Source of the DNA: Candidatus Krumholzibacteriia bacterium
GTDB taxonomy: Bacteria > Krumholzibacteriota > Krumholzibacteriia > WVZY01 > JAKEHA01
Direction of reading: 5' to 3'
DNA length: 32,453 bases
Assembly (NCBI GenBank): GCA_035762505.1
Contig: DASTOO010000146.1
Span: forward strand, 1-32,453
The stretch's first letter is position 1. Each line of letters starts with the position of its first letter. A model generated the notes under the pieces. That model saw only the letters and a program-made list of their open reading frames with translations. It was not told where the DNA came from and ran no database searches. The position numbers and the translations under genes were made by a program. Positions 11,981 through 32,453 of the stretch are shown in pieces.

Positions 11981-12415
11981 CGGGCGAGCCTCCTAGTCTT
12001 GAATTTGCCCGCGGGGGGCGAAACCGTTGCCGGCCATATTGCCCCATAACTCGTGACAGGTCAAGGGGTTTTTGGCGGCGTCTCCGAAACGCAACGCCCC
12101 GCCTCATTGTGAGAGGCGGCGCACGGTGCGACGCGCCACCATGGGGATGATCCGGGACGTTCGCGCGCCGGGCAGCCCTCCTGCGTTTCCGCGGAAGACG
12201 AGGCACGGGAGAGAAAGCGGCGTCCTCATGCGGCCGTACGCGCATTGGTACGTCAGTTGCTGAACGAAGCAACCGTGCTGCGGGGTAGTCGCCGCACAAG
12301 CATCTGTTGTACGTAGTTCACCGCACTGCCCCGCAGCCATGAGCAATCGCAAGCAAGCAGGAGACGCGATCGGATGACCGCACCGTGTCGCGCCCAGATT
12401 GAGGAGGCACTCATC

Positions 12416-12850
12416 ATGGCGTTTCGCAAGCACATTACGCTCGCGTTCGCGCTGCTCGCCCTGACCGCGATGCTCGCCGGCTGCGCCGATGAAACCGTCG
12501 CACCGGTCGAGCAGAACGAAGCGCCGGTGCTGGCGCCGACGAACGTGCAGGCCGAGATCGTGAACGGCGGCGACATCCGCGTCAGTTGGACTCCAAGCTC
12601 CCAGGCGAACGTGCGTGGTTACAACGTGTATCGTTTCGATCGCGAGAACAGCGCGATCGCGCGTCTCAATCCCGACGTGATCGGGGAAGCGTCCTACACG
12701 GACGGCGGGGCGGCATTCGCCCGCGAGTACGAGTACCGCGTGACCTCGGTCAGCACCAAGAACGCGGAGAGCAACTACGCGGCGGTCGTGATCACGAACC
12801 GCACGCCCGTCCCCAATCGCAGGGGACAGGATCCCGACGAGCAGAACTAG
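12416..12850 (+). CDS. Lipoprotein with a fibronectin type III-like domain
   Basis: Start moved to ATG 12416 (GGAGG about 9 nt upstream): MAFRKHITLAFALLALTAMLAGC (lipobox LAGC). FN3-like segment: PTNVQAEIV..IRVSWTPS..VRGYNVYR..EYEYRVTSV. Confidence 0.75.
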   Translation: MAFRKHITLAFALLALTAMLAGCADETVAPVEQNEAPVLAPTNVQAEIVNGGDIRVSWTPSSQANVRGYNVYRFDRENSAIARLNPDVIGEASYTDGGAAFAREYEYRVTSVSTKNAESNYAAVVITNRTPVPNRRGQDPDEQN

Positions 12851-12880
12851 TCGCTCCCTCGGGTGTACGCAGCAGGGAAC

Positions 12881-12909
12881 CCTCCCGGTGATCCGGGGGG
12901 TTTTCTCTT
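12881..12909 (+). terminator. Rho-independent terminator after the lipoprotein gene
   Basis: 8-bp stem (12881-12888 pairs with 12893-12900, one G-U), loop TGAT, followed by TTTTCTCTT (12901-12909). It sits between convergent genes. Confidence 0.55.
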
Positions 12910-16018: not shown

Positions 16019-16315
16019 GATGAACGCTGTCGAGGTGGTGTGCGGGGTCGACCGACGGCGGTTCGCCGACGCACTATAGATGATGGCCGAGCGTCACCCC
16101 GTCCCGCGACGGGATCCGCCCCACATTCGCAACTATTTGAAAGGAATGATACTTGAGCCCCGGCGCGCGCGCAACGGCTCCCGCGCCGGCGCGTGCAAAT
16201 TGCAGCCGGCCCCGCAGGCGCGGGGCCCCGCGGCGCCGGAGGAACCGCGTATCTATCCTGCTTCACCGCAAGTGGTTATGCCGCACGACCCCGATCCCTC
16301 CCCGATCGGCCGCTC

Positions 16316-16330
16316 TGGTATGCGATTCGC
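16316..16330 (+). promoter_or_regulatory. Weak sigma-54-like -24/-12 element upstream of the 751-aa gene
   Basis: TGGTATGCGATTCGC has GG (16317-18) and GC (16329-30) at the canonical GG-N10-GC spacing. It matches TGGCAC-N5-TTGC at 7 of 10 specified bases and ends 42 nt before ATG 16372. Confidence 0.3.
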
Positions 16331-16371
16331 TTAAGCCACTCTGCGCCGTGTGCGCGACCGGTCGACGACAC

Positions 16372-18627: not shown

Positions 18628-18650
18628 CTCGCGTCCGCGCCGGTCCGCCC

Positions 18651-18666
18651 CGGCACGGACTATGCT
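18651..18666 (+). promoter_or_regulatory. Sigma-54-type -24/-12 promoter candidate upstream of the Cys-motif/coiled-coil/TPR gene
   Basis: CGGCACGGACTATGCT has GGCACG identical to the -24 consensus core and ATGCT versus TTGCW at -12, with correct spacing (GG 18652-53, GC 18664-65). It lies 97 nt upstream of ATG 18762. Confidence 0.4.
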
Positions 18667-18761
18667 AGGCATTTCCGGGAATCATCCGACGTTATCGCCA
18701 CCCGCGACGACGCTTCCAGAAATTAGCCGTCGATTCGTCCTGAGGTTCAAGGAGACTTATC

Positions 18762-20114
18762 ATGAAGATCTGCCCGTTCATGTCGCACATGCTGGGAGCC
18801 GAGGGAAACGTCCTCGAGATCGACTCGCCCGCGCCGCGCGCGGCGGGTGACGTCGTCGTTCTCGGCTACGACGAAGGAGAATCCGGCGGCGTCAAGACGG
18901 AGCGCAGGCCGGCGCGGGCGACGACGAAGGCGAGAAACGAAGCGACCGCCACCGCGTCGCACCTCTACTGCCTGCGCGACACCTGCCGGTTCTACCGGAC
19001 CAAGGACGGCGAGTGCACGTTCGACTCCATCCTGGAGAGCGTCAGCCAGCAGTCGAAGGCCGTCGCCGAGCTGAGCGCGGGCGCCGACCGCGACAAGAAG
19101 GACGCCACCGCGGCCACGGTAACCCGCGAGCTGGACAAGTTCTGGAAGTTCCAGACCAAGAGCGTCACGGAGCTGATCTCGAGCTTCGGCGACTCCGAGA
19201 AACGGCAGACGGAGTCTTTCTCGAAGCTGGTTTCCGACGTGGAGAAGCGCATCATCGCGTTCATGGACGAAGAGGACAATCGTGACGAGCGCATGAACAC
19301 GATCCGCGACGGCGTAGCCGAGATCAAGGACACGATCGACGCGCGCAACGACGGCTTCGAGACCCTCACCACGACCGTTTCCGACCTCGTGATGTCCTTC
19401 GAGGACAACCTCAAGGAGATCCGCACCCACTGGCAGTCGCTGGCAAAGCGGCTCGACGCGCTCGAAGGCGCGGCCGCGAAGATGAACACCACGGACGGCG
19501 GCGCGGCTCTGGAGAAGGTGTCCGCGAAGATCGAAGCGGTGGACGCAAACGTCGCGCGCACCGTCGAGAACCTCGATCGCATGGAGCGCAACTGGGGCGA
19601 GCTGATGGAGGTCGTCAAGAGCTCCAAGAAGAAGAGCGACGACCCGGGCGCGCAGAACCGCCGTCGCGAGGCGATGAAGTTCAACAACCTCGGCGTGACG
19701 AGCTTCCACAACGGCGACCTCGCGCTCGCCCGCGACCAGTTCCTGGAAGCGGTCAACCGCGACGACACCTTCGCCGAGTGCTACAACAACCTCGGGCTCG
19801 TGTACACCGAGCAGGGAGAATCGCAGCTCGCCGCCGACGCCTTTACGCGTGCGATCCAGATCAACCCCGAGCTGCACGCGGCATACAACAACCTCGGCTA
19901 CGTGTACTACAAGCAGGGCGAGTACGATCGTGCGATCGAGATGTACAACGAGGCTCTGGCGCGCAGCTCCAACAACAGCTCGGCGTACACGAACCTGGGC
20001 AACGCATGGTTCAAGCTCGGCGACCGCAAGCAGGCGCGCAAGGCGTGGGAGCGGGCCATCGAGCTCGATCCCGCCAACGAGACGGCGCTGCGCAGCCTCA
20101 AGAACCTGGGCTGA
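18762..20114 (+). CDS. Hypothetical protein: N-terminal Cys motif, long coiled-coil, C-terminal TPR repeats
   Basis: AAGGAG 7 nt upstream of the ATG. MKICPFMSH...YCLRDTCRFYRTKDGEC. Heptad-like charged central region. Four to five TPRs (AECYNNLGLVYTEQGE.., AAYNNLGYVYYKQGEYDRAIEMY.., SAYTNLGNAWFKLGD..). Confidence 0.85.
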   Translation: MKICPFMSHMLGAEGNVLEIDSPAPRAAGDVVVLGYDEGESGGVKTERRPARATTKARNEATATASHLYCLRDTCRFYRTKDGECTFDSILESVSQQSKAVAELSAGADRDKKDATAATVTRELDKFWKFQTKSVTELISSFGDSEKRQTESFSKLVSDVEKRIIAFMDEEDNRDERMNTIRDGVAEIKDTIDARNDGFETLTTTVSDLVMSFEDNLKEIRTHWQSLAKRLDALEGAAAKMNTTDGGAALEKVSAKIEAVDANVARTVENLDRMERNWGELMEVVKSSKKKSDDPGAQNRRREAMKFNNLGVTSFHNGDLALARDQFLEAVNRDDTFAECYNNLGLVYTEQGESQLAADAFTRAIQINPELHAAYNNLGYVYYKQGEYDRAIEMYNEALARSSNNSSAYTNLGNAWFKLGDRKQARKAWERAIELDPANETALRSLKNLG

Positions 20115-20137
20115 ACGCCGGACCGGCCGGGTCCGCT

Positions 20138-20185
20138 CCGAAAAGCAGAATCCCCGTAGCAGCGACGTGTCGCTGGTACGGGGAT
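20138..20185 (-). terminator. Rho-independent terminator for the cold-shock gene (possibly bidirectional)
   Basis: 17-bp stem with one mismatch (20150-20166 pairs with 20169-20185). On the minus strand it is followed by TCTGCTTTTCGG (20149-20138). It lies between the convergent stops at 20114 and 20218. Confidence 0.55.
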
Positions 20186-20217
20186 CCGCGTTCCTAGCAG
20201 AACAACGAGTCTCTAAA

Positions 20218-20463
20218 CTAGGCGGCCTCCATGCTCGGCGCCGCGTCCTGTCCGCGCTTCTGACTGCGCAGGACGCCCTTCGCCTGAGGACCCTTCGGAC
20301 TATCCATCAACTCGTACTCGACGACCTCTCCCTCCGCCAGCGTGCGGTAGCCGTCCTCGCGAATCTCGGAGTAGTGAACGAAGATGTCTTTCCCGTTGTC
20401 ACCGAGAATGAAACCGTAACCCTTGTTTTCGTTGAACCACTTTACTTTACCAGTTATCCGCAA
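20218..20463 (-). CDS. cspA: CspA-family cold-shock protein with a short C-terminal extension
   Basis: [17 protein letters not shown] (RNP1) and DIFVHYSEI (RNP2). I favour the TTG start at 20463-20461 (AAAGGGGGA about 8 nt upstream). The track ORF begins at GTG 20496, which has no RBS. Confidence 0.85.
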
Positions 20464-20585
20464 GCTTCCGGTCCCCCTTTCAAAAGCAAAACCCACCGCG
20501 CATGGCTGCCCGGTGGATTCCCCTGGTTTCCGTTCAGATGTTGGCTGCGAACACGTGCTCTAATCCTTGGCGTGAGGACTGGCGG

Positions 20586-20615
20586 ATTATAGCACGGCGG
20601 CTCCACGCGCGTCAA
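20586..20615 (-). promoter_or_regulatory. Strong sigma-70-type promoter with extended -10 for the cold-shock gene
   Basis: Minus strand reads TTGACG (20615-20610), an 18-nt spacer ending in TGc, then a perfect TATAAT (20591-20586). The predicted leader is about 115 nt to the TTG start. Confidence 0.6.
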
Positions 20616-20819
20616 GCGACGACGCGACCTTCTGGGCCTGCGGACGCCATCTTCCACCCTTGCTGGAAACGGAAAGCAACTGCCGGGAAGCGCTCACGGA
20701 CGCGCCGGTGTCGTTGCATTCCGCGATCTTCACCTTTCCGCGCCGGCCCCGCGTGCGCGCCCGGCCGCGACCGCACGCGCACTTCGCCCCCCGGCCCGCG
20801 CCGCCGGGGCGCAGTGCGG

Positions 20820-20834
20820 TGGCATGGAACTTGC
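20820..20834 (+). promoter_or_regulatory. Near-consensus sigma-54 (-24/-12) promoter upstream of the FHA/phosphatase/kinase operon
   Basis: TGGCATGGAACTTGC versus the consensus TGGCAC-N5-TTGC. The only deviation is C to T at base 6. GG at 20821-22, GC at 20833-34. It ends 59 nt upstream of the RBS-supported GTG 20893. Confidence 0.6.
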
Positions 20835-20892
20835 CCTTTCTTGTTCGCTGACAAGGTGTTTCCCGATCGGTCCGGACGAGGAAGGTCACCGC

Positions 20893-22272
20893 GTGAAGAT
20901 CACGATTCCACATACGAAGCAAATCGGCGAGAGCGGCGAGGTCACCCGGGCCACGCTCAACGATCTCATGCGCGCCACCATCGACGCGAGCACGGCGAAG
21001 CCCTGCGTCCTCGAGATCTACGACAGCCTCAGCCAGCGCTTTCTCTTCGTGCGTGAGCGTCAGATCTATGCGGCGGCGGAGCTGAACGGCGGTGCGTTCG
21101 CCGCCACGTCGATCCGCGACTTCCTCCTCGGCGCGACCAACATGAGCTTTCCCCGCGCCACGTGGTACGAACTCAACACCAAGATCATCCACTCCGTCCT
21201 GGTGGTGGCGCAGAAGAAGCCCGCGTTGCGCGTCATGACGTCGCTCGTCGACCTGGATGAGCTGCTCGACCGCATCGAGAAGGAAGGCAAGAGCTGCATC
21301 GTCGCGGCGACGCGCGAGGACTTCCTCGCCATGCTCCGCTACGAGAAGGGCAAGACGGCGGCGTTCTGCTGGGAGCAGTCCATCACCGCGCCGCGCGAGG
21401 CGTCGTTCCGCGAGGACTTTCTCATCAAGGTCTACTCGAACGCGGCCGAGCGCCCCATGAACGTCAGCCTGTACGAGGACTTCCTCGTCTCCTACGCGCC
21501 GGACGCCAAGAACCTCCCCGAGAGCTTCAACGGGCGCTTCGCCGACGTATTCCTCTCCAAGCCGCCGGTCGTGATCCTGCGCTTCAAGGACCGCGAAATC
21601 GGGCGCTGGGAGATGGACCGGCCGCGCCTGCGCATCGGCCGCACCCCGGACAACGACATCGTGATCGACAACCTCGGCGTCTCGCGCCTGCACGCGGTCA
21701 TCGAGGAAGAGAAGGGCGCGTACTCGGTCCGCGACTGCGACAGCCTGAACGGCACCGTGGTCAACGGCGAGCGCACCCCCCACCAGACGCTGCAGGACGG
21801 CGACGAGATCTCCATCGGCAAGCACACGATCGTGTTCCGCGTGCCCAGCGGCCACGCGATACCGGAGCCGGAGACGATCGCCGGCTTCGACCAGACGATG
21901 ATCATCTCGCGCAGCTCCGTGTCGCACACCAACAAGACGCAGGAGGCGCCGGCCATGCAGGCCCGGGCGTCCGCCCCGACGCGCGAGCGGACCCCGCGCC
22001 TCGTCATCCACACCGATTACGGCGACCGCGTGGTCGAGATCGCCGACGAGGCGGTCACCATCGGTCGCGACGAGGACGCGGATGTGCGGGTGAACGGCAT
22101 GTTCGTCGCTTCCCGGCACGCCGAGATCACGCGGGAGAACGGCCGCGTGGTGCTGCGCCGCGTGGGCGGGATGCGCGCGGTCAAGGTGCGCGGCCGGTCG
22201 GTCAAGGAAGTGGAGCTCAAGGACAACGACGAGATCCAGATCGCGAGCGAGTTGTTCGTATTTCACGAGTAG
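20893..22272 (+). CDS. Dual FHA-domain protein with an uncharacterised ~230-aa N-terminal domain
   Basis: GTG 20893 has GAGGAAGG 7-8 nt upstream. The track ATG at 20824 lies inside the sigma-54 motif. FHA1: LRIGRTPDNDIVIDNLGVSRLHAVI..NGTVVNGER..ISIGKHTIVF. FHA2: VTIGRDEDADVRVNGMFVASRHAEI..DEIQIASELFVF. Confidence 0.85.
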   Translation: MKITIPHTKQIGESGEVTRATLNDLMRATIDASTAKPCVLEIYDSLSQRFLFVRERQIYAAAELNGGAFAATSIRDFLLGATNMSFPRATWYELNTKIIHSVLVVAQKKPALRVMTSLVDLDELLDRIEKEGKSCIVAATREDFLAMLRYEKGKTAAFCWEQSITAPREASFREDFLIKVYSNAAERPMNVSLYEDFLVSYAPDAKNLPESFNGRFADVFLSKPPVVILRFKDREIGRWEMDRPRLRIGRTPDNDIVIDNLGVSRLHAVIEEEKGAYSVRDCDSLNGTVVNGERTPHQTLQDGDEISIGKHTIVFRVPSGHAIPEPETIAGFDQTMIISRSSVSHTNKTQEAPAMQARASAPTRERTPRLVIHTDYGDRVVEIADEAVTIGRDEDADVRVNGMFVASRHAEITRENGRVVLRRVGGMRAVKVRGRSVKEVELKDNDEIQIASELFVFHE

Positions 22273-22288
22273 AGCGTGGAGGCACCGA

Positions 22289-23020
22289 ATGCGCTACGTC
22301 CTGATGTCAGACATCCACGGGAACCTTGAAGCTCTGCAGGCCGCGCTCGAGGCGGCGCGCCGCTTCGAGCCATACCACCTCATGTGTCTCGGCGACTTCG
22401 TGGGATACGGCGCGGATCCCGAGCCGTGCATCGAGCTGGCCGGCGACAAGGCGAACCTCATGCTCGCCGGCAACCACGACCTGGCGGTATCGGGGATCAT
22501 CTCCACCGACGACTTCAATACCATCGCGCGGGAGTCCATCGACTGGACGCGCGAGCAGCTCACCGCGGAGGATCGCGAGCTGCTCTCGAACCTTCCGCTC
22601 CAGTACATCGACGGCGACTACTGCTACACGCACGCCTCCCCCATCGACCCGATCCGGTTCATGTACATCCGGACTCTCGAGGACGTGGCGGAGGTGTTCG
22701 CGAGCATCGGCCAACGCTTCTGCTTCGTGGGGCATACGCACCTGCCGGTGCTGGTGGCGATGAACACCCGCCAGGGCCGCATGGAGGTCGTGCGCGACGC
22801 GCGCATCACCGTCGCGGACCACTGCCGCTACTTCGTCAACGTGGGCTCCATCGGACAGCCGCGCGACTCCAACCCGGACGCGTGCCTGGTCGTCCTGGAC
22901 GAGGAGGCCGGCTCGCTGGAGTTCATCCGCGTCCCCTACGACGTCTCCAAGTCGCAGGGAAAGATTCTGTCCAACGGTCTTCCGTCCTATCTGGCGGAGC
23001 GTCTCGTGCTGGCGAGGTAG
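22289..23020 (+). CDS. Metallophosphoesterase (calcineurin-like; probable Ser/Thr phosphoprotein phosphatase by context)
   Basis: MRYVLMSDIHGN, CLGDFVGYG, AGNHD, VGHTH, NVGSIGQPRD motifs. GGAGG 7 nt upstream of the ATG. Confidence 0.85.
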   Translation: MRYVLMSDIHGNLEALQAALEAARRFEPYHLMCLGDFVGYGADPEPCIELAGDKANLMLAGNHDLAVSGIISTDDFNTIARESIDWTREQLTAEDRELLSNLPLQYIDGDYCYTHASPIDPIRFMYIRTLEDVAEVFASIGQRFCFVGHTHLPVLVAMNTRQGRMEVVRDARITVADHCRYFVNVGSIGQPRDSNPDACLVVLDEEAGSLEFIRVPYDVSKSQGKILSNGLPSYLAERLVLAR

Positions 23021-23038
23021 TGCGTAGGGGGTGCGGCA

Positions 23039-24874
23039 GTGACTGACGGACTGAACTACAAGATCATTCAAACCGTCGCGTCCGGCGGGACGGCGGTGCT
23101 CTACAAGGCCATCCAGCTCTCACTGGACCGGGTGGTGGCCATCAAGCGCCTCCACCAGCACCTCACCACCGACGACAACTTCACGCGCCGTTTCGTGCTG
23201 GAAGCCAGGGCGGCCGCGTCGCTCGACCACGAGAACATCGTCCGCGTGATCGACTTCGGCGTCGAGAAGGACTGCTACCAGATGGTGATGGAGTTCATCG
23301 AGGGCGAGAGCCTGCGCGATGTGCTCGAGCGCTGGCGGCCCATCAACCCCGAAATCGCCCTCGCCCTCACGCACCAGGTCTGCCGCGGGCTCGAACACGC
23401 GCACGCCAAGGGCATCGTCCACCGCGACATCAAGCCGGGCAACGTGATGCTCACCAAGACGGGCGGCGTGAAAATCGCCGATTTCGGCCTCGCCAAGTTG
23501 ACGCAGGGCAGCTCGATGCACACGGCCGTGGACACGATCCTCGGGACGCCGCTCTACATGTCGCCCGAACAGGCCTTCGGCGAGAGCGTCGATCAGCGCA
23601 GCGACCTCTTCTCGCTCGGAACGATGCTGTATGAGCTCCTCACGGGGAAGCAGCCGTTCGCGAGCGAGAACTACATGGGCGTCATCCAGAACATCCTCAA
23701 GAAGGAGATCCCCGGCATCCGCGAGCTCAACCCCGCGGTGCCGCTGGCGGCGGAGGAGATCACGGCCAAGGCGCTCGCGCGCAATCGCGAGGAGCGCTTC
23801 CAGTCGGCACGCGCGTTCCGCGAGTCCATCGAGCAGGCGCTGGGCCTCGAGGGCCTGAACCGCGCGCTCGCGGCGATTCCGATGCTGCTCGACCGCAACA
23901 GTCTTTCGCGCGGGCTGTCGCTCGCCCCCACCCCGATGGCGCAAACCGGCATCAACCCGCGCAAGTCGCGCAGTTCCGCCATGGCCCGCCGGAAGTCGAA
24001 ACGACCGGTGTGGACCACGGTGAGCCTGTTGGCGGCGGTGGCCTGCGCCGCGGTGGCGTACTTCCAGTTCGGCCCCGGCACGATCCCGGGGCTGACGGCG
24101 GACGCGCCGGTCACCGGCCGCGTCCAGAATTCCGTCATGGGTGACGAATGGAGCGCCGACCTGTTCGGCGCCGCCGACATCCCGAAGGCGCCGGCGAGTG
24201 CGGCGGACACGGGCGCGACTGCACGGCCCGACACGGCGGCGGCGCGCGGGCCCGCACCCGTGGCGGGCGACACCGCGGGGAACCCGGCGCCGGCCATGCC
24301 GTGGGTCGACCCTTCCGCGAAGCCGCAGGAAAAGCCCAACGAGCAACCGGTCAACCCGGCTCCGGCCGAGGTTGCCTCCGAGCCCGCGCCAAAGCCCACG
24401 GAGGCGACGCCCGCCAGGACGCAGACCGAGGAGCCGGAACGCTTTCGCGAGGGCTACCTGCTCGTGGACGTGGAACCGTCGGGGCAGGTGTACGTGAACG
24501 GGGTCTACCGGGGACTCGCCAACCCGACGCTGCGGCTCACCCTCAACGCCGGGTTGCACTCCGTCGAGTGCCGCAGCGACAAGTTCGAGCCGTACGCGGA
24601 ATCGTTGCGCATCACCGCCGGAGAAACGTCGAAGCGGACGGTGATTCTCAAGAAGCTCAAGGGAATCATCAGCCTCGCCACGACGGAAGGAGCCGAGTTG
24701 TACATCGACGGCGCGCTCATCGGCGTCACGCCCATCATGCGCCCCATCGAAGTCGACGCGGGGACGCACACGCTCACCATCAAGAAGGAGAACCACTTCA
24801 CGTGGTCATCCGAGGTGACCGTCGAGCCGAACGTCACCCTGCCGCTCCGCATCACGCTGAGCCCGCGCTACTAG
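23039..24874 (+). CDS. Receptor-type Ser/Thr protein kinase: kinase domain, TM helix, Pro/Ala-rich linker, two PEGA domains
   Basis: VAIKRL, HRDIKPGNVML, DFGLAKL, GTPLYMSPEQ. TM segment VWTTVSLLAAVACAAVAYF. C-terminal YLLVDVEPSGQVYVNG.. and ELYIDGALIGVTP.. (PEGA-like). GTG start. Confidence 0.9.
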   Translation: MTDGLNYKIIQTVASGGTAVLYKAIQLSLDRVVAIKRLHQHLTTDDNFTRRFVLEARAAASLDHENIVRVIDFGVEKDCYQMVMEFIEGESLRDVLERWRPINPEIALALTHQVCRGLEHAHAKGIVHRDIKPGNVMLTKTGGVKIADFGLAKLTQGSSMHTAVDTILGTPLYMSPEQAFGESVDQRSDLFSLGTMLYELLTGKQPFASENYMGVIQNILKKEIPGIRELNPAVPLAAEEITAKALARNREERFQSARAFRESIEQALGLEGLNRALAAIPMLLDRNSLSRGLSLAPTPMAQTGINPRKSRSSAMARRKSKRPVWTTVSLLAAVACAAVAYFQFGPGTIPGLTADAPVTGRVQNSVMGDEWSADLFGAADIPKAPASAADTGATARPDTAAARGPAPVAGDTAGNPAPAMPWVDPSAKPQEKPNEQPVNPAPAEVASEPAPKPTEATPARTQTEEPERFREGYLLVDVEPSGQVYVNGVYRGLANPTLRLTLNAGLHSVECRSDKFEPYAESLRITAGETSKRTVILKKLKGIISLATTEGAELYIDGALIGVTPIMRPIEVDAGTHTLTIKKENHFTWSSEVTVEPNVTLPLRITLSPRY

Positions 24875-25983
24875 CCCGTCGCACGCGCATCCAGGAGCCG
24901 CGCCGCTTCCGCCACCACCTCGTCCGCGCCGAGCGACAGCAGCCGCCCCCCCGGCGACCGCACGATATGCAGCCCCTCGCAGCGCGGCGCCCATCGAAAG
25001 GGGTCGGTCGGGCCGAACACCGCCAGCACCCGCGCCTGCGCGGCGGCCGCGACGTGCATCACCCCGGTGTCATTGCACAGCACGAGGTCCGCCCGCCGCA
25101 GGAGCGCCGCCACGTCCAGGATGGGCCGGCCACGGAACACGGTACCCTTGACACTGCAGGCGGACTGAAACGCGCCCACCGACGCGGCGTCGGCGGGGCC
25201 TTCGATCACCGCGAGGGTCACGTCGCGCTCACTTGCCAGGTCGTCCACCACCCGCGCCCATCGCTCCGGCGGCCAGATGTTCTCCGCCTTGCCCGCGCCG
25301 GGGTGCACCGCGAGGCGCACCGTTCCGTCCTTCCAGCACGCGGCCGCCGCATCCTCCGCCCAGCGTTCGCTCCCGGGGCCGGGCACGAGCAGCGGCGCGA
25401 TATCGGCGGTCGTGATGCCGACCGCGCGCAGCGGGTGGAGGTTGTGCTCCGCCTCGTTCATGGTTGCGAGCTCGGTGTCCGAGGGGAGCGGCAGCGTCAG
25501 GTTGAGGTAGCTGCCGGTGAGGGATTCGCCCACGCGCGCCGACGTGGAGCCGATGCGCACGCGCGCGCCCGAGAGGACGGCGAGAACGACGCTGGTGAAG
25601 GAGAACGACACCGTGTGCAGCACGATGGCAAGGTCGAAGCGGCGGGCGCGCAGCTTCCGGACCAGCCCGGGCGAGCGGGCCGGGCTCTTCTTGTCGTACG
25701 TGTAGATGTCGTCCACGTACGGACTGTTGGCAAGGACACCGCGGTTCAGCGTCGACGAGACGACGCCGATGCGGGCGGACGGGAAGGTTTCACGGATGGC
25801 GCGGAAGGCCGGGATCGCGAGCATCATGTCGCCCATCTGGTTGTGCTGGCGAATGACGAGGATGCGCTCGAAGCGCATCGCGCGAAACTGCTCCGCCGTG
25901 ATGGGCCGCGCGCGCAACGCGCGTCCGACGCCGGCCATGAGCGCGCGTTTCCCGGAGCGTTCGAGCGTCTTCACGCGTCCCAT
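24871..25983 (-). CDS. Glycosyltransferase family 9 (heptosyltransferase-like)
   Basis: ILVIRQHNQMGDMMLAIPAFRAI and LVLCNDTGVMHVAAA..VLAVFGPTDP. Start moved to ATG 25983 (MGRVKT), 4 nt after the rsgA stop, rather than the overlapping 26049. Confidence 0.85.
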   Translation of the reverse strand: MGRVKTLERSGKRALMAGVGRALRARPITAEQFRAMRFERILVIRQHNQMGDMMLAIPAFRAIRETFPSARIGVVSSTLNRGVLANSPYVDDIYTYDKKSPARSPGLVRKLRARRFDLAIVLHTVSFSFTSVVLAVLSGARVRIGSTSARVGESLTGSYLNLTLPLPSDTELATMNEAEHNLHPLRAVGITTADIAPLLVPGPGSERWAEDAAAACWKDGTVRLAVHPGAGKAENIWPPERWARVVDDLASERDVTLAVIEGPADAASVGAFQSACSVKGTVFRGRPILDVAALLRRADLVLCNDTGVMHVAAAAQARVLAVFGPTDPFRWAPRCEGLHIVRSPGGRLLSLGADEVVAEAARLLDARATG

Positions 25984-25987
25984 GCGC

Positions 25988-26929
25988 TCACCACTGCTTG
26001 TTGGCCGCGCGCTCGCGCAGATCGCGCACGATCTCGACATAGCTCGCAAAGCGCGCCGCGTCGATCGCTCCCGTCTCCACCGCCGCCTTCACCGCGCAGG
26101 ACGGTTCGTGGGTGTGGCTGCAGGGGTCGAAGCGGCAGCGCGTCTCCATGCGCACGATCTCCGGGAAGCACTCCGCGACGCCGTCCGGGTCGTCCCCGGG
26201 AAACTGGAAGGTCTGCATGCCCGGCGTGTCGGCGAGAAAGCCTTTGCGGAAGGGAAAGAGCTGCGAATACGCCGTGGTGTGCCGGCCACGGCCGGTCCGC
26301 TCGCCCACCTCGCGCACGTCCAGGTCGAGTGCGGGGTCCAGGCGGTTGAGGAGGGAGCTCTTCCCCACGCCCGACTCGCCGACGAAGGCGTAGACCCCCT
26401 GCCCGACGAGCGCCGCCAGCGCGTCCACGCCGCTGCCGCTGGCCGCGCAGGTCTCGAACACGTCGTAGCCCGCGCCCTCGTAGACCGAACGGAATGCCGC
26501 CACCTCGCCCTTTCCCCCCATGTCGGTCTTGTTGAGCACGACGACCGCGGGCGCATGGCCCCATTCGGCGGCGGCGAGTATGCGGTTGAGAAACTCGGGG
26601 TGCGGCGGGGGCTCGCCGAGCGACGCCACCACGAAGAGCCGCTCCACGTTCGCGACGATGAGCCGGCTCCCGCGGCCCCTGTCCGCGTGGCGCGAGAGCC
26701 ACGACGCGCGCGGGAGCACCTTCTCCAGCGCAACGCTCCCCGACGGCTCGCGCCGGACCTCCACCCGGTCGCCGGCCACCACCTGCAGGGATTTTTCCTT
26801 CACCCGGAAGCGGCCCCGGAGCGAGCAGGCGACCACGGTCGCCCCGATCCGGACCCAGACATCCCCTCCGGTCACCCGGATGACGAGGGCATTTTCGACG
26901 CGATCTTGCATGGAATCGTCGCTGCTCAT
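25988..26929 (-). CDS. rsgA: Ribosome small-subunit-dependent GTPase A
   Basis: Circularly permuted GTPase motifs VLNKTDM, then GESGVGKSSLLN and DTPGMQ. C-terminal zinc knuckle CRFDPCSHTHEPSC. The start at ATG 26929 (MSSDDS) is tentative; 26911 and 27001 are alternatives. Confidence 0.85.
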   Translation of the reverse strand: MSSDDSMQDRVENALVIRVTGGDVWVRIGATVVACSLRGRFRVKEKSLQVVAGDRVEVRREPSGSVALEKVLPRASWLSRHADRGRGSRLIVANVERLFVVASLGEPPPHPEFLNRILAAAEWGHAPAVVVLNKTDMGGKGEVAAFRSVYEGAGYDVFETCAASGSGVDALAALVGQGVYAFVGESGVGKSSLLNRLDPALDLDVREVGERTGRGRHTTAYSQLFPFRKGFLADTPGMQTFQFPGDDPDGVAECFPEIVRMETRCRFDPCSHTHEPSCAVKAAVETGAIDAARFASYVEIVRDLRERAANKQW

Positions 26930-26960
26930 GCGGGTGGCCGCCCGGCTCGCAGAATTGGTA

Positions 26961-26989
26961 TTGAGGATAAGCCGCGAATCTGGTAATTT
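26961..26989 (+). promoter_or_regulatory. Promoter candidate for the PtsN-like / zinc-ribbon gene pair
   Basis: TTGAGG (26961-66), a 17-nt spacer ending in TGg, then TAATTT (26984-89). The same bases can also be read as a weak sigma-54 element, TGGTAATTTCCAAGC (26981-95, GG-N10-GC). Confidence 0.35.
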
Positions 26990-27029
26990 CCAAGCGTTCA
27001 TTCACTTGGCGTCCGCCGACGCCCGATCC

Positions 27030-27512
27030 ATGGCCACACCAGTGATGACGTCCCAAGAGCTCGCTTCATACTTCAGAGACCCTCTTTGCATCTTCGACCT
27101 GAAGGCGACGACCAAGCGCGACGCGCTGGCCGAGCTGGTCGAAGCGGTGTGCGCCGATCGTGACATCCGGGACCGTGGCCTGATTCTCGAAATGCTGCTC
27201 AACCGCGAAAGCCTGGGCAGCACCGCCATCGGCAAAGGCGTCGCGTTTCCGCACGGCCGCACGCTCGCGGTGCGCGAGCTCTCCATCGCCTTCGGGCGCT
27301 CCGTTTCCGGCGTCGACTTCGATTCCATCGACAAGCAGCCGACACACGTGTTCTTCCTCATCATCGCCCCCCCGCAGGACCGCGATAATCTGTACCTGCA
27401 GGTTCTCGGCCGCGTCGTCGACCTCATCAAGGACGATGCCGCGCGCGGGCGCATCATGGGCGCATCGAGCGTCGGAGAACTGAAATCCATCGTCGAAGGG
27501 CAGGGCTTGTGA
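27030..27512 (+). CDS. ptsN: PTS EIIA type-2 domain protein (PtsN / EIIA-Ntr-like)
   Basis: In-frame C-terminal part of track ORF 26520..27512, starting at ATG 27030. LNRESLGSTAIGKGVAFPHGR (phospho-His context) and HVFFLIIAP. About 160 aa, typical of a stand-alone EIIA-Ntr. Confidence 0.8.
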   Translation: MATPVMTSQELASYFRDPLCIFDLKATTKRDALAELVEAVCADRDIRDRGLILEMLLNRESLGSTAIGKGVAFPHGRTLAVRELSIAFGRSVSGVDFDSIDKQPTHVFFLIIAPPQDRDNLYLQVLGRVVDLIKDDAARGRIMGASSVGELKSIVEGQGL

Positions 27513-27868
27513 GCGATCTTCCGGCAAAAAAGCAGGACCAGGCGCGACTCCTGGTCGCACTACAGGACATCGACCACATGATCAAGGAAGCGGAGGACAC
27601 CAAGACCTCCGCGAAGTTTCAGGAAATGGGCTTTCCGCTCGACGGAATCCTCGAGTTGAAGAAGGCCCGCGAAGAAATCGCCGCAAACGTCAAACCCCAG
27701 CTCCTCAACCGGTATCAGCGCGTCTCGAAGAACTACGAACGCTCGGTCGTTCCCGTGGTCGGCGAGTTGTGCACGGGCTGCTTCGCCAAGGTGCCGACGT
27801 CCTTCCGCTACGAGAAGAACGCCGTCGTGGCCTGCGAGAACTGCGGCCGCATTCTCTACTTCACGTAG
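27509..27868 (+). CDS. Short C4 zinc-ribbon protein of the DUF164/COG1579 (HP0958-like) type
   Basis: The GTG start overlaps the ptsN-like TGA (GTGA). Coiled-coil-like N-terminus, then VVPVVGELCTGCFAKVP....VVACENCGRILYF, matching the C..C...C..CGRILY ending I associate with this family. Confidence 0.8.
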   Translation: MSDLPAKKQDQARLLVALQDIDHMIKEAEDTKTSAKFQEMGFPLDGILELKKAREEIAANVKPQLLNRYQRVSKNYERSVVPVVGELCTGCFAKVPTSFRYEKNAVVACENCGRILYFT

Positions 27869-27907
27869 TCTCTCACTATACGTGTGGCCGCGCGGCAGTT
27901 GTCCGTG

Positions 27908-28008
27908 GCAGCGGTGTGCGGTCTGCGCAACGTCCTCGCGTGAACGACGAAGTGGCCGGCAAGTCCCAGCATTTGCTGCGGATTGTTGCTCAGACCGCAC
28001 ACCGCTGC
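27908..28008. repeat. Long inverted repeat forming a ~100-nt hairpin (function unknown; ncRNA or regulatory candidate)
   Basis: 18-bp perfect inverted repeat: GCAGCGGTGTGCGGTCTG (27908-27925) pairs with CAGACCGCACACCGCTGC (27991-28008). After one mismatch it extends by 5-6 more pairs (27927-32 with 27984-89). Confidence 0.6.
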
Positions 28009-28129
28009 TCCCGGGCGCCGTTCCGCGCGGGTGGCGGTCAGCGGGCGCCCGTGCGGGCGAGCCATTTATCGCGAAGGCGGAAACTGGCGAGACCGCGACG
28101 GGCTGCTGACCGACAGGACCCGCGCGGCA

Positions 28130-28169
28130 ATCAACCCGGCTGGTAGAGTGAAACGTGATCAACCGGGCT
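28130..28169 (+). promoter_or_regulatory. Direct repeat pair abutting the -35 of the EBP promoter (operator candidate)
   Basis: ATCAACCCGGCT (28130-41) and ATCAACCGGGCT (28158-69) share 11 of 12 bases and start 28 nt apart. The second copy ends at the first T of the TTGCTT -35 hexamer. Confidence 0.3.
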
Positions 28170-28196
28170 TGCTTTTCGGCCGTACTCTGGTAAAAT
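28169..28196 (+). promoter_or_regulatory. Sigma-70-type promoter with extended -10 for the enhancer-binding protein gene
   Basis: TTGCTT (28169-74), a 16-nt spacer ending in TGg, then TAAAAT (28191-96), in the only AT-rich patch of the spacer. The leader to ATG 28277 is about 70 nt. Confidence 0.5.
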
Positions 28197-28276
28197 AATT
28201 TTACTTTTCGTCCGCAAGGTATTGTTTCTTGCCCGTCTTGCCCGCTTGCCGGGGCCATACGGACGTGGGAGCGGCC

Positions 28277-31200
28277 ATGGAGTCTTCCGTTCGAACCTTC
28301 CGTCGCAATCTCGAGCCCATCGAGGAGGAGCGGGTTGCGGGCGCCTGGCGCGTGGCCGGGCACGTCGACCTGGTCAGCGAGCGCAGGTTCCTCGTGGCCT
28401 GGGCGGCGACCGACGCCGCCGGAAGAACCGACGCGAACGTGCTCACCTTTCGGTGTGACGCCGCCATGGCGATCGCGCCGGATGCTTGTCTCCCCGCGCT
28501 CGACATCACCACCGGCAATGGCCGCGCCGAGATTCTCACCTCCTTCGCCCGGCGGCTGGATGACAACGAGTGGTCGAACGGTGACATCGAGCGCGCGCTG
28601 CTCTCCCTGATCGATACCCTGGATCGCCTAGACGCCCACGCGTTCCACGCCGTGCATCTCAACGCCGATCTCGTCGGGCTCGACGAGACGAGTGCGCTCG
28701 TCGTTTTCCCGGCCGCGTACGCGTTTCCGCCGGATGCCGCCGACCCGGCGCGCGCCGGGCTGGATGCGAGGGCGATCTCACGCGCGGCGCATGTGCATAC
28801 CCTCGCGAGCGTGGCGAAGACGCTGGCGCCGCACGCCACGGGCGCGTTCGCGGACCGGCTGCGCAGGCTCGTCGCCGCCATCGCGGCGGGCTCGGTCGCG
28901 GGCGCGGCCCAGGCACGAACGTTACTCGCCGCCGAGACGAACGCCGCCCCGACCCCGGCGGCGCCCGCGCGCAAGCGGGACGACATCCCTTTCGACACGG
29001 CCGGCGCCCTGCGCGCGATCGCGGAGTCGAAGCCGGTGGAGGTCGCGGGACCCGCCGGCAGCGGCCGCACGGCCGTGCTCGAACGCTTCGCTGCGGAAGC
29101 ACGGCGAGCCGGCATCGACCCGCACTGGCTGGACGAGTGGGAGATCCCGGGCACCCCGCGCAAGCGCGGCGCCGGCCGCGAGGCGGGGCGCGGTACGGTG
29201 TGGATCGTCGACGACGCGGACGAGCGCCCGCTCCTGCATGCGTTCGTGCTGGACCACGCCGCCGAACTGGAGCGGCGGCCCGGCGCGGGGCTCGTGATCG
29301 CCACGCGGTCCGACGACCGGCCCAGCGCCTTCATGGCGCTCCTGCGCTCGCGCAGCCCGCACGGCGTGTTCACCGCGACTCTCCCGCCCGCGCGCAGCGA
29401 CGACCCGCGCGCCGCCGCGCTGGACACGCTGGAACCGGACGCGCGCCAGGCGCTCGAGCTGGTCGCGGTGGCCGATTGTCCGCTGCCCATCGACGTGGTG
29501 CTCTCGGTGTATCCGGGCACGGACCGGGCGGTGCACCGGCACATCTTCGCCCTGGCCGGCGCCGACCTCGTCGCCATCGAGTCGCGTCGTCTCGCCGCCG
29601 GCAGCGCGACCCTCCTCGTCTCCGTTCCCAGCGCGTCGCTGCGCCGCCTGATCCGCGACCGCATTCCGGAATCGCGCCGGCGCAACCTGCACCGCACCAT
29701 CGCGCGCATCGCCGACGAACGCGGCTCGTTCGCCCCCATGTTCGTTTACCAGCATCTCCTGGGCGCCGGCGAAGGACGCGACGCCGCTGCGCGCGCGGCG
29801 GCCTTCGTCCGCGAGGCGACGCGCCCGCAGCGCGCGCCATTCATCGAGAGCATCGTGCGCGACGTGATCGAGAGCGGCCTCGACCGCAGCCTCGCCTACG
29901 GCGACCGCATGACGCTCCTCGTCCGCGTCGGCGACGATCTGCTCGCCCGCGGCAGGCAGAAGGAGGCCGAAGCGCTCCTCGTCCGCGCCCGCGCCATCCG
30001 CGCCAGCGGCGACGACGTCCGCGCCAAAGCCCCGCTCGCGGGCGAGGCGATGCGGCTCCTGGCCGACGCGTGGGCCGCGCGCGGGCAGCTGCGCGAGGCG
30101 CTCGAGCTGCTCGAGGATACGCGCGAGGATATTGCGCCCTACCTGAGTCTCGCGGAGCAGGCCCGGCTGCTGAACGACATCGGCTGGTTCCAGTACCGCC
30201 TCGGCGACTATTCGAGTTGCGTGGACTCGTGCAAGTTCACGATCAACACGCTGAACCCGAACGAACACCCGCTGGTGGTCGCCCAGGCGCTGAACCTGAT
30301 GGGCGTCATCGCCTTCAACACGAGCCGTTACGACGAGGCGGTTTCTTACTACGAGCAGAGCGCGTTCCTGCGCGAGCGCGAGAAAGACCTCAACGCGCTC
30401 GCCGGCTCCTACAACAACCTGGCGCTGGCGTACCAGTCCAAGGGCGAATACGACAAGGCGCTCGGCTATCTCCACAAGAGCATCGAGATCAAGAGCCGCC
30501 AGAACAACGAAGCGGGCATCGCGGGCGGCTACCTGAACCTCGCGTTCCTCTACCTGGAGGTGCACAACTTCGACGAGGCGGAGCGGCGTTGCCGCGAGAG
30601 CCTGCGCATCAGCTCCGAGCTGGGACTCGCGCAGCTCATCGCCGAGAACCTCAACACCCTCGGCGACATCGTGTTCGCGCGCGGCCGCCTGGACGACGCC
30701 GAGCGCTACTACCGCGATTCCCTCGGCAACGCGCGGCGGCTTTCCACCGTGAACGAGGAGATGGGCGCGCAGAAGCGCCTCGCCAAGCTGTACATCCGCA
30801 AGGGCCGTCCCGAGGACGCGCGTGCCGCCATCGACGAGGCCTCGCGTCTCGCCGCCCAGATCGGATCGAAGTACGAGCAGGCGCAGACCGAGGAGATCTA
30901 CGGCGACCTGAGCGTCTCGGAGGGCGTGCACGGCGCGGCACTGGATCATTTCGAGAAGGCCGCGACGGCGTACGCGACCCTCTCCAAGCTCCGCCTCGCG
31001 GCGGCGTCCCTGGCCAAGGCGGGGATCGCGCACGCGAAGAACAGCAACCCGCTCGACGCGAAACGATACCTGGACCGCGCGCAGGACCTCATGAAGTCGC
31101 AGATCGGTCACGAGATTCCCGAAGAGATCGTGACCCTGCAGCAGACTCTGCGCGAGAGCCCGCTGCCCACCGCGGTGTCGGGCACGGCGTCGCAGAAGCT

Positions 31201-32453
31201 CATGTACGCGTTCAACGAGCTTTCCTCCCTCTCCGACTACGCCGACGACAAGGGCGCGTTCTTCCGCCGCATCATCGAGGTCTTCCAGAGCCTGCTCGGC
31301 GCCGCGCAATGCACGCTCGCGTTGCGGACCGAGGACGGCTTCGTGGGGTTGAACGCCGCCGGCGAGGAGCAGCCCATCGCGGACCCGATCATGCAGGGGG
31401 TGTTCGCGCGCGCCCTGCAGCTGGGCATGGTCATGCACTGCGGCTCACCGGAGATCAAGGACATCCTCGCGCGCGGACCGAAACCCGACCCGGCCATCCG
31501 GCTCGTGATCGTGCCGATGAAGTCGATGGGAAAGGAACTGGGGTGCATGCTCCTCACCGTGCCGCCCGCGTCGGTTCCCGCGACGCGGGAGGACGTGGAC
31601 TTCATCACCTGCATCGGACGGCACGTGGCCGGCGGTCTGCGGCTGAGCCTCCACTTCGACGAGCGTTCGAGCACCGAGCAGCGTTTCGAGCGCGACCTCG
31701 ACGGCCTCGTGTCGCCGGCCGCGGACGCGAACCGTTTCCAGACGCTCATCGGGCGCGACGAGTCCATGAAGAAGGTCTTCCGCGTGATCGACAAGATCAA
31801 GGACATGGACACGGGCATTCTCATCTTCGGGGAGAGCGGCACCGGCAAGACGGAGATCGCGCGCACCATTCACAACACGAGCCTGCGGCGGCGTCACGTG
31901 TTTCAGTCGATCCACTGCGCGGAGATCCCGACCAGTCTCCTCGAGAGCGAGCTCTTCGGCCACGAGCGCGGCGCTTTCACCGGCGCGGTGCAGCGCAAGC
32001 TCGGCCGCTGCGAGATCGCGGACGGCGGCACCGTGTTCCTGGACGACGTCAACGTGATGCCGCTGGACACGCAGGCGAAGCTCCTCCACTACCTGGAGAA
32101 CAAGAGCTTCACGCGCCTGGGGGGCACGCAGAAGATCACGACCGACGTGCGCCTCATCGCGGCCAGCAACGAGGACCTCGAGCGGCTGGTGAAGGAGAAC
32201 CGCTTCCGCGAGGACCTCTACTACCGGCTGAAGGTCAACCAGATCGAGCTGCCGCCGCTGCGGGATCGCCAGGACGACATGATCCTGATCGCCCAGGAGT
32301 TCATCAAGAAGCGCTGTCACCAGCAGGAGAAGCCGTTGAAGCGGCTCTCCTCGGAGACGATCAAGCTGTTCCAGAAATACCGCTGGCCGGGGAACGTGCG
32401 CGAGCTGCAGAACGTGCTCGAACAAATCGTGCTCCTGTGCGACGATGACATCG
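28277..32453 (+). CDS. Giant sigma-54-dependent transcriptional activator (EBP): N-terminal unknown/kinase-like region, P-loop NTPase (STAND-like), TPR array, GAF-like domain, sigma-54 AAA+ domain; partial (3' end beyond window)
   Basis: Own translation. ATG 28277 has GGGAG 5 nt upstream. The frame is open from 28199 to the window end and is absent from the ORF track. [10 protein letters not shown] and VWIVDDADE; TPRs ([27 protein letters not shown]..); then [45 protein letters not shown]. Confidence 0.9.

Follow-up and report, generated by a model that had tools for sequence, protein, structure and literature searches.

The protein PknK of Mycobacterium tuberculosis is the textbook example of a Hanks-type Ser/Thr kinase fused to a STAND (signal transduction ATPase with numerous domains) module and tetratricopeptide repeats (TPRs). 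The model of STAND activation, in which a sensor and an arm keep the protein autoinhibited before it multimerises, has been derived from MalT and PH0952 (PMC6468293, PMC4381067). Kinase folds have also been found next to ATPases of this sort among the bacterial pseudokinases: according to a 2025 review, all those of the "CP1" group are linked to a COG3899 ATPase, often together with "FhlA" or PAS, and their function was described there as unknown (PMC12599244). Here, the analysis of a gene from a Candidatus Krumholzibacteriia bacterium is reported, which lies at the end of a stretch of 32,453 nucleotides (contig DASTOO010000146.1; hereafter the window, meaning this whole stretch). The source organisms of the gene family are uncultured, and all the results are computational, obtained from sequence and models. 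The product is probably a sigma-54 activator of about 1470-1485 residues, in which a NifA-like output (GAF, AAA+ with GAFTGA, and Fis-type helix-turn-helix, HTH) is coupled to a 960-residue input module made of a dead kinase fold, a STAND-type nucleotide-binding oligomerisation domain (NOD) and a TPR sensor, working by the mechanism proposed below. A first-pass annotation, made from the letters alone, had described an enhancer-binding protein (EBP) with a catalytically dead-looking N-terminus, an Arg in the first P-loop, a TPR array and a GAF-like region upstream of the AAA+ domain; all of these were found again in the sequence, displaced by 2 nt at most.

The kinase nature of the N-terminus is supported by its predicted structure. 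In the AlphaFold2 (AF2) model of residues 1-220, built on a 24-sequence family alignment (pLDDT 87.2, pTM 0.81), alphaE and the region of the catalytic loop come after a kinase N-lobe, and behind them stand two short strands and then three helices. Comparison of this model with the PDB by Foldseek gave at least 1806 matches at E<=1e-3, and the 50 that were listed are all protein-kinase domains (best E 1.6e-7, probability 1.00, TMq 0.39-0.54, identity 8-14%). When the same residues were compared by hhalign with Hanks kinases, that of the window among them, the match was collinear though modest (E 1.1e-4, probability 57%). Pfam Pkinase does not match residues 1-220 even at E<=10, nor does any other Pfam model, and the domain has therefore probably been missed also by profile-based surveys of bacterial pseudokinases. 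In the hhalign position map the beta3 Lys corresponds to A41, the HRD Asp to H127, the Lys and Asn of the catalytic loop to N129 and L132, and the DFG Asp to P145; the Gly-rich loop (GxGxxG) is absent. The catalytic residues have been lost in every family member, with replacements that differ among orthologues, and LPxAY is common to the whole family at the DFG position. Since the fold is that of a kinase and all the catalytic motifs are gone, residues 1-220 are regarded as a pseudokinase. The first-pass annotation had seen here a segment (residues 117-149) that recalls a kinase catalytic segment without its Asp, its Lys and the glycine loop, and had graded the kinase-like reading as weak. The absence of the catalytic residues is borne out by the alignment and the kinase fold has been obtained with high model confidence, so that the reading stands and its grading was too low.

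This domain also gives a clue to the origin of the input module. Distant family members retain a start "SRYxVxxxLG", reminiscent of kinase subdomain I, and the only proteins outside the family that are reached by the N-terminal profile are recognisable Hanks kinase domains fused to STAND-TPR, which points to descent from that architecture; the 960-residue input module would have been inherited from the "Hanks kinase - STAND ATPase - helical-repeat sensor" proteins, which are widespread. Those examined (P0045, P0046, P0048 and P0050) share with the activator the N-terminal kinase fold, the STAND ATPase and the helical repeats. P0045, P0046 and P0048 (the last one cut at its N-terminus) keep HRD, KPxN and DFG, and the first two keep also the Gly-rich loop and the beta3 Lys. 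P0050 has HGD for HRD and DLG for DFG and, like the activator, an Arg P-loop (GPEQSGRR). In contrast with the activator, the kinase is the presumed output of these proteins, and they carry no GAF-AAA+-HTH cassette.

The region that follows the pseudokinase (residues 236-640) begins, in its AF2 model (pLDDT 88.5, pTM 0.84), with a P-loop core of five strands; a bundle of helices, a winged helix that bears a hairpin, and repeats of helical type come after it. Its best PDB match in Foldseek is the MalT-like STAND-TPR structure 6MFV (E 3e-7, TMq 0.46, 493 columns), followed by Avs5 (1.6e-5), ORC/Cdc6, NLRC4 (3e-3) and Avs4. A STAND-class NTPase with winged helix, arm and TPR sensor is thus supported by the model, and the N-terminal 600 residues contain both a protein-kinase fold and an NTPase fold. 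This agrees with the earlier proposal of a STAND/LAL-like module that takes the place of the usual receiver domain of an EBP, as does the TPR_MalT model, which exceeds its cut-off in the TPR array (54 bits, cut-off 45). STAND sequence models remain below threshold in the window protein, with nSTAND_NTPase5 at 17.6-18.5 bits (cut-off 34) and AAA_16 at 17.9 (cut-off 32.6); in the distant relative P0012 the cut-offs are exceeded by nSTAND3 (30.0 bits versus 27.2) and AAA_22 (36.2 versus 27). The winged-helix profile aligns weakly with the winged-helix domain of Pkinase-AAA_16 proteins (hhalign E 1.4e-4). A PDB sequence search with the N-terminal profile gave merely matches of about 11 bits per repeat to the RecA P-loop, which have been superseded by the structure model. 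A RecA/KaiC-like ATPase, to which the resemblance of a WLDEWE stretch to VEIYGPESSGKT...FIDAE had pointed, was dropped, as the model matched STAND, ORC and NLR proteins. MalT and its LAL relatives, together with the archaeal PH0952 (6MFV), share with the activator the NOD, the winged helix, the arm, the TPR sensor and a transcriptional output. On the other hand, MalT/LAL proteins end in a LuxR-type HTH and work with the sigma-70 polymerase, whereas the activator has a sigma-54 AAA+ domain and, judging from its orthologues, a Fis-type HTH; the P-loop of MalT/LAL proteins carries Lys, and a kinase fold at the N-terminus, a GAF domain and a second ATPase are all absent from them. The NCBIfam MalT model matches the TPR region alone (12.7 bits, cut-off 537).

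Another distinctive feature of the NOD is its Walker A motif, which departs from the STAND consensus GxxxxGK[ST] at Arg264, the sister clades having GxxxSGKT. The motif had been placed at 29046-29072 by the first-pass annotation, which allowed that the Arg might be an isolated variant, and its Walker B assignment was exact. Among the close representatives that cover this region, 20 of 25 have Arg (GxxxxGR[TS]) and five have Lys (GxxxxGK[TS]). GSGR[TS] is fixed throughout the window's clade, and the substitution is therefore a conserved feature of the lineage. In a rough neighbour-joining tree, Lys looks ancestral and Arg has become fixed in the window's clade; the Lys has been lost elsewhere as well, to Arg in P0012 and P0013, to Asn in P0030, and in the degenerate loops of P0018 and P0044. 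Despite the Lys/Arg change, the Walker B Asp-Asp, the Gly and the Thr/Ser of the P-loop, and H472 are conserved, the latter being a residue of the helix after the winged helix that is invariant in 16 of 16 family sequences. A Lys-to-Arg change in the Walker A motif of P-loop proteins usually leaves some nucleotide binding and cripples hydrolysis, and it inactivates STAND proteins such as Apaf-1 and NLRs. In the activator, the Arg P-loop with its Walker A Thr and the Walker B Asp-Asp retained suggests nucleotide binding without efficient hydrolysis. Just after the Walker B motif (29210-29224), most Arg-P-loop sequences read DDxxER or DDxxDR and most Lys-P-loop sequences DDxxAR. A strict covariation of the P-loop Arg/Lys with Glu/Ala four residues after Walker B was rejected, as it is broken by P0089 (Lys, DDGNER), and it is thus merely a tendency.

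The TPR array consists of exactly eight 40-residue units, where about eight repeats had been noticed before at approximately 30150-31080. It is presumed to be a sensor or partner-binding domain. Identity among orthologues is 78-90% in the array, compared with 39-52% in the pseudokinase, 41-64% in the NOD and 51-82% in the GAF domain, and this far better conservation suggests a conserved partner or ligand. The GAF domain is below threshold when Pfam is run on the single window sequence (E 0.0027, 18.7 bits, cut-off 22.4); it has been confirmed by the family profile, which matches the solved domains of DevS (6.2e-6), Aquifex Nlh1 (5.5e-5) and the sigma54-regulator 3K2N (3.2e-4), and both GAF and GAF_3 are above cut-off in the family member P0030. 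The most conserved part (88-94%) is the AAA+ domain, in which Sigma54_activat covers residues 1157-1323 (E 5.8e-63, 212 bits, model matched over its full length) and AAA_lid_14 residues 1329-1391 (E 6.6e-20), both in Pfam; more than 1150 residues do precede it, as the first-pass annotation had it. Its best PDB matches are the NtrC family, FleQ, NifA and PspF, and the NifA model alignment begins at residue 1037, inside the GAF domain, and extends to the lid. The C-termini of the orthologues read ..NKxxAAxLLGITKPTLYxRLRGY.., a Fis-type HTH whose counterpart lies beyond the window, and HTH_8 is above cut-off in P0018, P0030 and P0044.

The C-terminal part of about 500 residues therefore has the arrangement of EBPs such as NifA, Nlh1 and FhlA, in which an AAA+ domain with GAFTGA stands directly after a GAF domain and is followed by a Fis-type HTH. 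These EBPs have 500-700 residues and GAF is their only or main input, whereas in the activator about 960 more residues stand before the GAF domain. Another difference is found in the Walker B of the AAA+ domain, which has DD instead of the DE of these EBPs. The catalytic Glu is replaced by Asp (FLDDV), the three distinct solved EBPs that were aligned reading FLDEV or FLDEI, and DD is present in 24 of the 24 close relatives with a readable motif. At the same position, the P0030/36/40 clade has NE and P0044 has DE. As aligned, the NOD and the AAA+ module both carry a conservative change at a catalytic residue.

In the window, the 5' end of the gene is complete, with an ATG at 28277, GGGAG just upstream and an N-terminus (MESS[VI]R) that is shared by its relatives. 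The 3' end is lost at the window edge, where some 80-95 codons are absent, including the Fis-type HTH; the full-length orthologues (1466-1485 aa) end with this HTH, and with them the domain order is pseudokinase, NOD, winged helix, arm, eight TPRs, GAF, AAA+ and HTH. Among species-representative genomes the family has been found in 11 loci, every one from metagenome-assembled genomes of uncultured Krumholzibacteria or "Latescibacteria", and five of the 11 contain an uninterrupted gene (1470-1485 aa, with the Fis-type HTH at its end). In three others (L001, at 12000-12900, L004 and L008) the gene is broken by frameshifts or a premature stop. These look like assembly errors, and because of them gene callers report two genes instead of one, a "TPR protein" and a "sigma-54 regulator". 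The whole-protein search gave about 24 more cluster representatives (62-80% identity, 1466-1485 aa), unnamed or annotated "NtrC family response regulator/TPR repeat protein". The family is rare: when the N-terminal 524 positions were used in an exhaustive hidden Markov model (HMM) search, only 47 proteins out of 1.84 billion representatives were obtained at E<=1e-3, and the longer ones among them (1477-1552 aa) have the same architecture, with TPR, GAF, Sigma54_activat and HTH_8. A word-indexed protein search reaches the family solely when the query includes the conserved AAA+ and TPR parts; with residues 1-620 it gave just four partial relatives, and with the GAF profile one fragment. Searches of residues 1-960 against Pfam, NCBIfam and PADLOC returned TPR matches alone, and no defence-system or curated family. 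No RNA genes were found by Rfam and tRNA scans of the window.

The genetic context of the activator has been conserved as well. Both kinases and the FHA protein to which the first-pass annotation had drawn attention are present in the window, one of the kinases being truncated (Table 1). A block of about 13 genes (window 16153-32453), in the order TPR, TPR, CSD(-), FHA, metallophosphoesterase, kinase/PEGA, GT9(-), RsgA(-), EIIA_2, Zn-ribbon, activator, NIF3 and TPR_19, is kept in L001, L015 and L016, and synteny persists where the N-terminal domains of the activators are only 21-28% identical. The FHA/metallophosphoesterase/kinase order is also kept beside orthologues and distant family members. 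The EIIA_2 and Zn-ribbon genes are immediately upstream of the activator in L003, L015 and L016, EIIA_2 alone in L001, and three inserted genes separate them from the activator in L002. In the window, a sigma-54-type -24/-12 element ends 58 nt upstream of the GTG start codon of the FHA gene. This element (TGGCATGGAAnTTGC) begins 72-80 nt upstream of the FHA start codon across loci and has been found in six of the six loci that cover the region: the window, L001 (position 2786), L013 (2779), L014 (2754), L016 (2661) and L015 (about 2962), where its version is CGGCACAGAACTTGC. It is directly followed by CCCTTT in five of them, all but L016, and forms a conserved island amid divergent intergenic DNA. 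No other sigma-54 AAA+ gene is present in the window or in any fetched locus, and with the element conserved this makes the promoter of the FHA operon a reasonable candidate target of the activator. About 105 nt upstream of the -24 element, a block TTGCATTCCGCGA (20715-20726) is conserved in the four closest loci and may be a binding site of the activator; it is not clearly an inverted repeat, and L015 and L016 show loosely similar TTGC...GCGA strings alone. The deep synteny and the conserved sigma-54 promoter make it more plausible that the activator reads out Ser/Thr phosphorylation, as was suggested in the first-pass annotation from the neighbouring genes.

Two further promoter-like elements were noticed in the window. 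A sigma-70 promoter (TTGACG-N17-TATAAT, 20585-20616, - strand) points toward the divergent cold-shock (CSD) gene and is conserved in L001, L013, L014, L015 and L016. A second sigma-54-like candidate site, TGGTACGTCAGTTGC (12246-12260, + strand), lies 128 nt upstream of a lipoprotein-like ORF (12374-12850, + strand) with a signal peptide and a LAGC lipobox, and an HU/IHF-family gene (11702-11980, - strand) is found just upstream of this ORF.

Table 1. Coordinates of the activator gene, its domains and motifs, and neighbouring elements in the window (residue numbers refer to the activator).
Feature	Position (nt)	Strand	Basis or remark
Pseudokinase-STAND-TPR-GAF-sigma54 activator gene	28277..32453	+	1392 codons without stop; runs past window edge
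Pseudokinase domain, residues 1-220	28277..28936	+	AF2, Foldseek and hhalign; C-lobe shortened
Degenerate catalytic loop (residues 121-132) and FPAAYA (144-149) at DFG place	28637..28723	+	hhalign
NOD, STAND type, five-stranded P-loop core, residues ~241-368	28997..29380	+	AF2, Foldseek
NOD Walker A GPAGSGRT, residues 258-265, Arg264 at Lys position	29048..29071	+	Sequence
NOD Walker B VWIVDDADE, residues 308-316	29198..29224	+	D312 and D313 invariant among orthologues
Short helical domain and winged helix, residues ~378-461	29408..29659	+	Model, including beta-hairpin wing
Helical "arm", residues ~465-621	29669..30139	+	Model helices, TPR-like Pfam matches
NLHRTIARI helix, invariant, within arm	29684-29710	+	Alignment
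Eight tandem 40-residue TPR units, residues 623-942	30143..31102	+	TPR_12 E 3.9e-30, exact register
GAF domain, residues ~978-1133	31208..31675	+	Family profile against PDB
Sigma-54 interaction AAA+ domain and lid	31745..32449	+	Sigma54_activat, AAA_lid_14
AAA+ Walker A GESGTGKT, residues 1185-1192	31829-31852	+	
GAFTGA, residues 1232-1237	31970-31987	+	Sigma-54-contacting loop
AAA+ Walker B VFLDDV, residues 1253-1258	32033-32050	+	
FREDLYYRL	32204-32230	+	Conserved arginine-finger region of EBPs
GNVREL	32390-32407	+	Sensor-II region of EBPs
Second Hanks-type kinase, cut by left window edge	17-664	-	42% identical to 23039-24874 kinase
Sigma-54-type -24/-12 element TGGCATGGAACTTGC	20820..20834	+	One mismatch to TGGCAC-N5-TTGC
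Double-FHA protein	20893-22272	+	Pfam; GTG start set by tblastn
Metallophosphoesterase	22289-23020	+	Pfam
Hanks Ser/Thr kinase with PEGA domains	23039-24874	+	Pfam
Phosphotransferase system (PTS) EIIA_2 (PtsN-like) gene	27030 (start, a guess from start-codon positions)	+	Pfam
Small Zn-ribbon protein	27509-27868	+	Pfam

The Arg P-loop, the dead kinase and the TPR array are real, but the word "unusual", given to the architecture in the first-pass annotation, has to be qualified, since related (pseudo)kinase-AAA_16-GAF/PAS-sigma54 proteins are present in databases and their class is mentioned in the 2025 review. The whole-protein search returned several of them (P0094-P0099, 1931-2236 aa, of the (pseudo)kinase-AAA_16-GAF-PAS-sigma54 type), in which the modules follow one another in the same order as in the activator: first a kinase fold, then a STAND-type ATPase that includes a winged helix and a helical region, and finally GAF, AAA+ and HTH. 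In CP1-type proteins, too, the kinase domain is often catalytically degraded. Unlike those of the activator, the kinase and ATPase domains of P0094-P0099 are recognised by Pfam (Pkinase E 5e-28, AAA_16 E 1e-49); HKD...KPAN and a canonical P-loop (GYSGIGKS) are kept, PAS is present and there is no TPR_12 array. Their kinase domains have GFG for DFG and no beta3 Lys. The activator has instead a shortened kinase fold without motifs that is invisible to Pfam, a compact NOD, an Arg P-loop and eight 40-residue TPRs, and no significant match (probability 1%) was obtained between the kinase-domain profiles of its family and of the Pkinase-AAA_16 proteins. The plan of kinase fold, STAND ATPase, sensor and transcriptional output has thus been catalogued already, and by its domain content the activator family is a more degenerate variant of a catalogued but unstudied architecture. 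A literature search found nothing specific on STAND with sigma-54, on Pkinase with Sigma54_activat, or on myxobacterial kinase-EBP fusions.

In the mechanism that is favoured here, the NOD would be held in a closed state by the TPR sensor and the arm for as long as no ligand or protein partner is bound, as in MalT-type STAND proteins. Opening of the NOD would then lead to self-association of the N-terminal module, which would either bring the AAA+ domains together or lift a repression mediated by the GAF domain, and the AAA+ hexamer would assemble on enhancer DNA and remodel the sigma-54 RNA polymerase. The NOD with its Arg P-loop would hold a nucleotide with little or no hydrolysis, and would act as a scaffold or as a slow or locked switch rather than as a cycling ATPase. 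The dead kinase domain, which occupies the effector position of STAND proteins, would most likely offer a docking or phospho-acceptor surface to the products of the neighbouring genes, namely the Hanks kinase, the FHA protein and the phosphatase. A parallel for this is the mycobacterial MviN (MurJ), in which PknB phosphorylates a pseudokinase domain that the FHA protein FhaA then binds. In MviN, as in the activator, the kinase fold is dead and all three catalytic motifs are degraded, and the activator gene has genes for an FHA protein, a phosphatase and a Hanks kinase as neighbours; MviN is a membrane flippase and the activator a transcription factor, and the likeness is one of arrangement, not of sequence. 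By analogy with MviN, the pseudokinase of the activator may be a docking place for the kinase or the FHA protein encoded nearby. Finally, the activator would drive the sigma-54 promoter of the FHA/phosphatase/kinase operon, closing a feedback loop. The complete version of this idea, an autoregulatory circuit from Ser/Thr phosphorylation to sigma-54 with a dead kinase as receiver, a nucleotide-locked, non-cycling Arg-P-loop STAND template and a promoter of its own in front of the kinase operon, is doubtful and is put forward as a tentative extension.

Several points weigh against the favoured mechanism. That the Arg P-loop binds nucleotide is an assumption carried over from mutants of other P-loop proteins, and the window protein lacks the His (FxH) found behind the wing in winged helices of the AAA_16 type, so that its nucleotide pocket may have degenerated altogether. 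STAND proteins do not usually form hexamers, and it is not obvious how their oligomers would be coupled geometrically to an AAA+ ring. The structure models were built on shallow alignments of 16-24 sequences, and with Asp in place of the catalytic Glu in Walker B the ATPase rate of the output module is uncertain. The tie between the activator and the promoter of the FHA operon is drawn from their proximity and co-conservation, which are equally expected of a simple conserved core-genome block, and in L002 three unrelated inserted genes part the activator from the kinase cluster.

Some of these observations would fit a protein in which both the kinase fold and the NOD are inert and bind no nucleotide, the TPRs tether partners, and a GAF ligand controls the AAA+ domain as in NifA, NorR and FhlA. 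The Walker A Lys has repeatedly given way to Arg, to Asn or to a fully degenerate loop, the pseudokinase and the NOD are the fastest-evolving parts (39-64% identity versus 88-94% in AAA+), the FxH His is missing, and the GAF domain resembles those of NifA-like activators. However, an empty pocket would not need the conserved Walker B Asp-Asp, Walker A Gly and Thr/Ser, and H472; it is Arg, and not a random residue, that has been fixed over 20 cluster representatives; and the folds have been kept, with high model confidence, at family-wide identities of 12-30% in the pseudokinase and 19-28% in the NOD and winged helix. A wholly inert scaffold is for these reasons judged unlikely. At the other extreme, the NOD could exchange ADP for ATP and hydrolyse it in a canonical STAND cycle, which would make the activator a MalT-like protein with a sigma-54 output. 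The rest of the P-loop (GxxxxG-[TS]) and the Walker B are intact, and neither the architecture nor the locus differs in the sister lineages with Lys, so that function has apparently been preserved across the Lys/Arg change. Against such a cycle stand the general behaviour of Walker A Lys-to-Arg changes, which normally abolish or strongly lower hydrolysis, and the Asn or degenerate loops of other members, from which hydrolysis would seem dispensable; ATP cycling by the Arg P-loop is quite improbable in consequence.

The kinase-like domain might also be an atypical active enzyme, with relocated catalytic residues or with an activity like that of the AMPylase SelO. New activities are known from bacterial "pseudokinases", SelO and SidJ among them (PMC12599244), the charged residues D31, E35, R59, R83 and E85 of the domain are conserved, and so, strongly, is LPxAY. 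Nevertheless, the Gly-rich loop, the beta3 Lys, the HRD Asp, the catalytic-loop Asn and the DFG Asp are all gone, with variable replacements, the C-lobe is truncated and the alignments show no evident Lys/Asp pair at other positions, and this proposal appears very unlikely. The frameshifts in L001, L004 and L008 could raise the suspicion that the gene is an artefact, by mis-assembly, a frameshift fusion or decay into a pseudogene. This explanation has a negligible probability, and it is refuted by conservation: the frame of 1466-1552 aa is intact in dozens of independent assemblies from several lineages, the domain order and the synteny of the locus are maintained, and the frameshifts of L001 are scattered like assembly errors. 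An activator with a dead kinase fold and a NOD that binds nucleotide without cycling remains the preferred reading.

If this reading is true, the oligomerisation switch of a STAND module would be wired, within one polypeptide, to a second oligomerisation machine, that of the AAA+ domain, and bacteria would re-use dead kinase folds and natural Lys-to-Arg P-loops as regulatory scaffolds. A parallel is offered by eukaryotes, in which pseudokinases work similarly, as do "sensor" NLRs whose P-loops are dispensable. The sister clades with Lys or Arg, otherwise identical in architecture and locus, constitute a natural experiment on the role of the Walker A lysine in STAND signalling. For a family whose members are currently annotated as "TPR repeat protein", "hypothetical" or "NtrC family response regulator", a candidate circuit can be offered, made up of the kinase/FHA/phosphatase operon, its sigma-54 promoter and the activator. 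Should the more tentative circuit reading hold, the His-Asp input of NtrC-type regulators would have been replaced in Krumholzibacteria-like bacteria.

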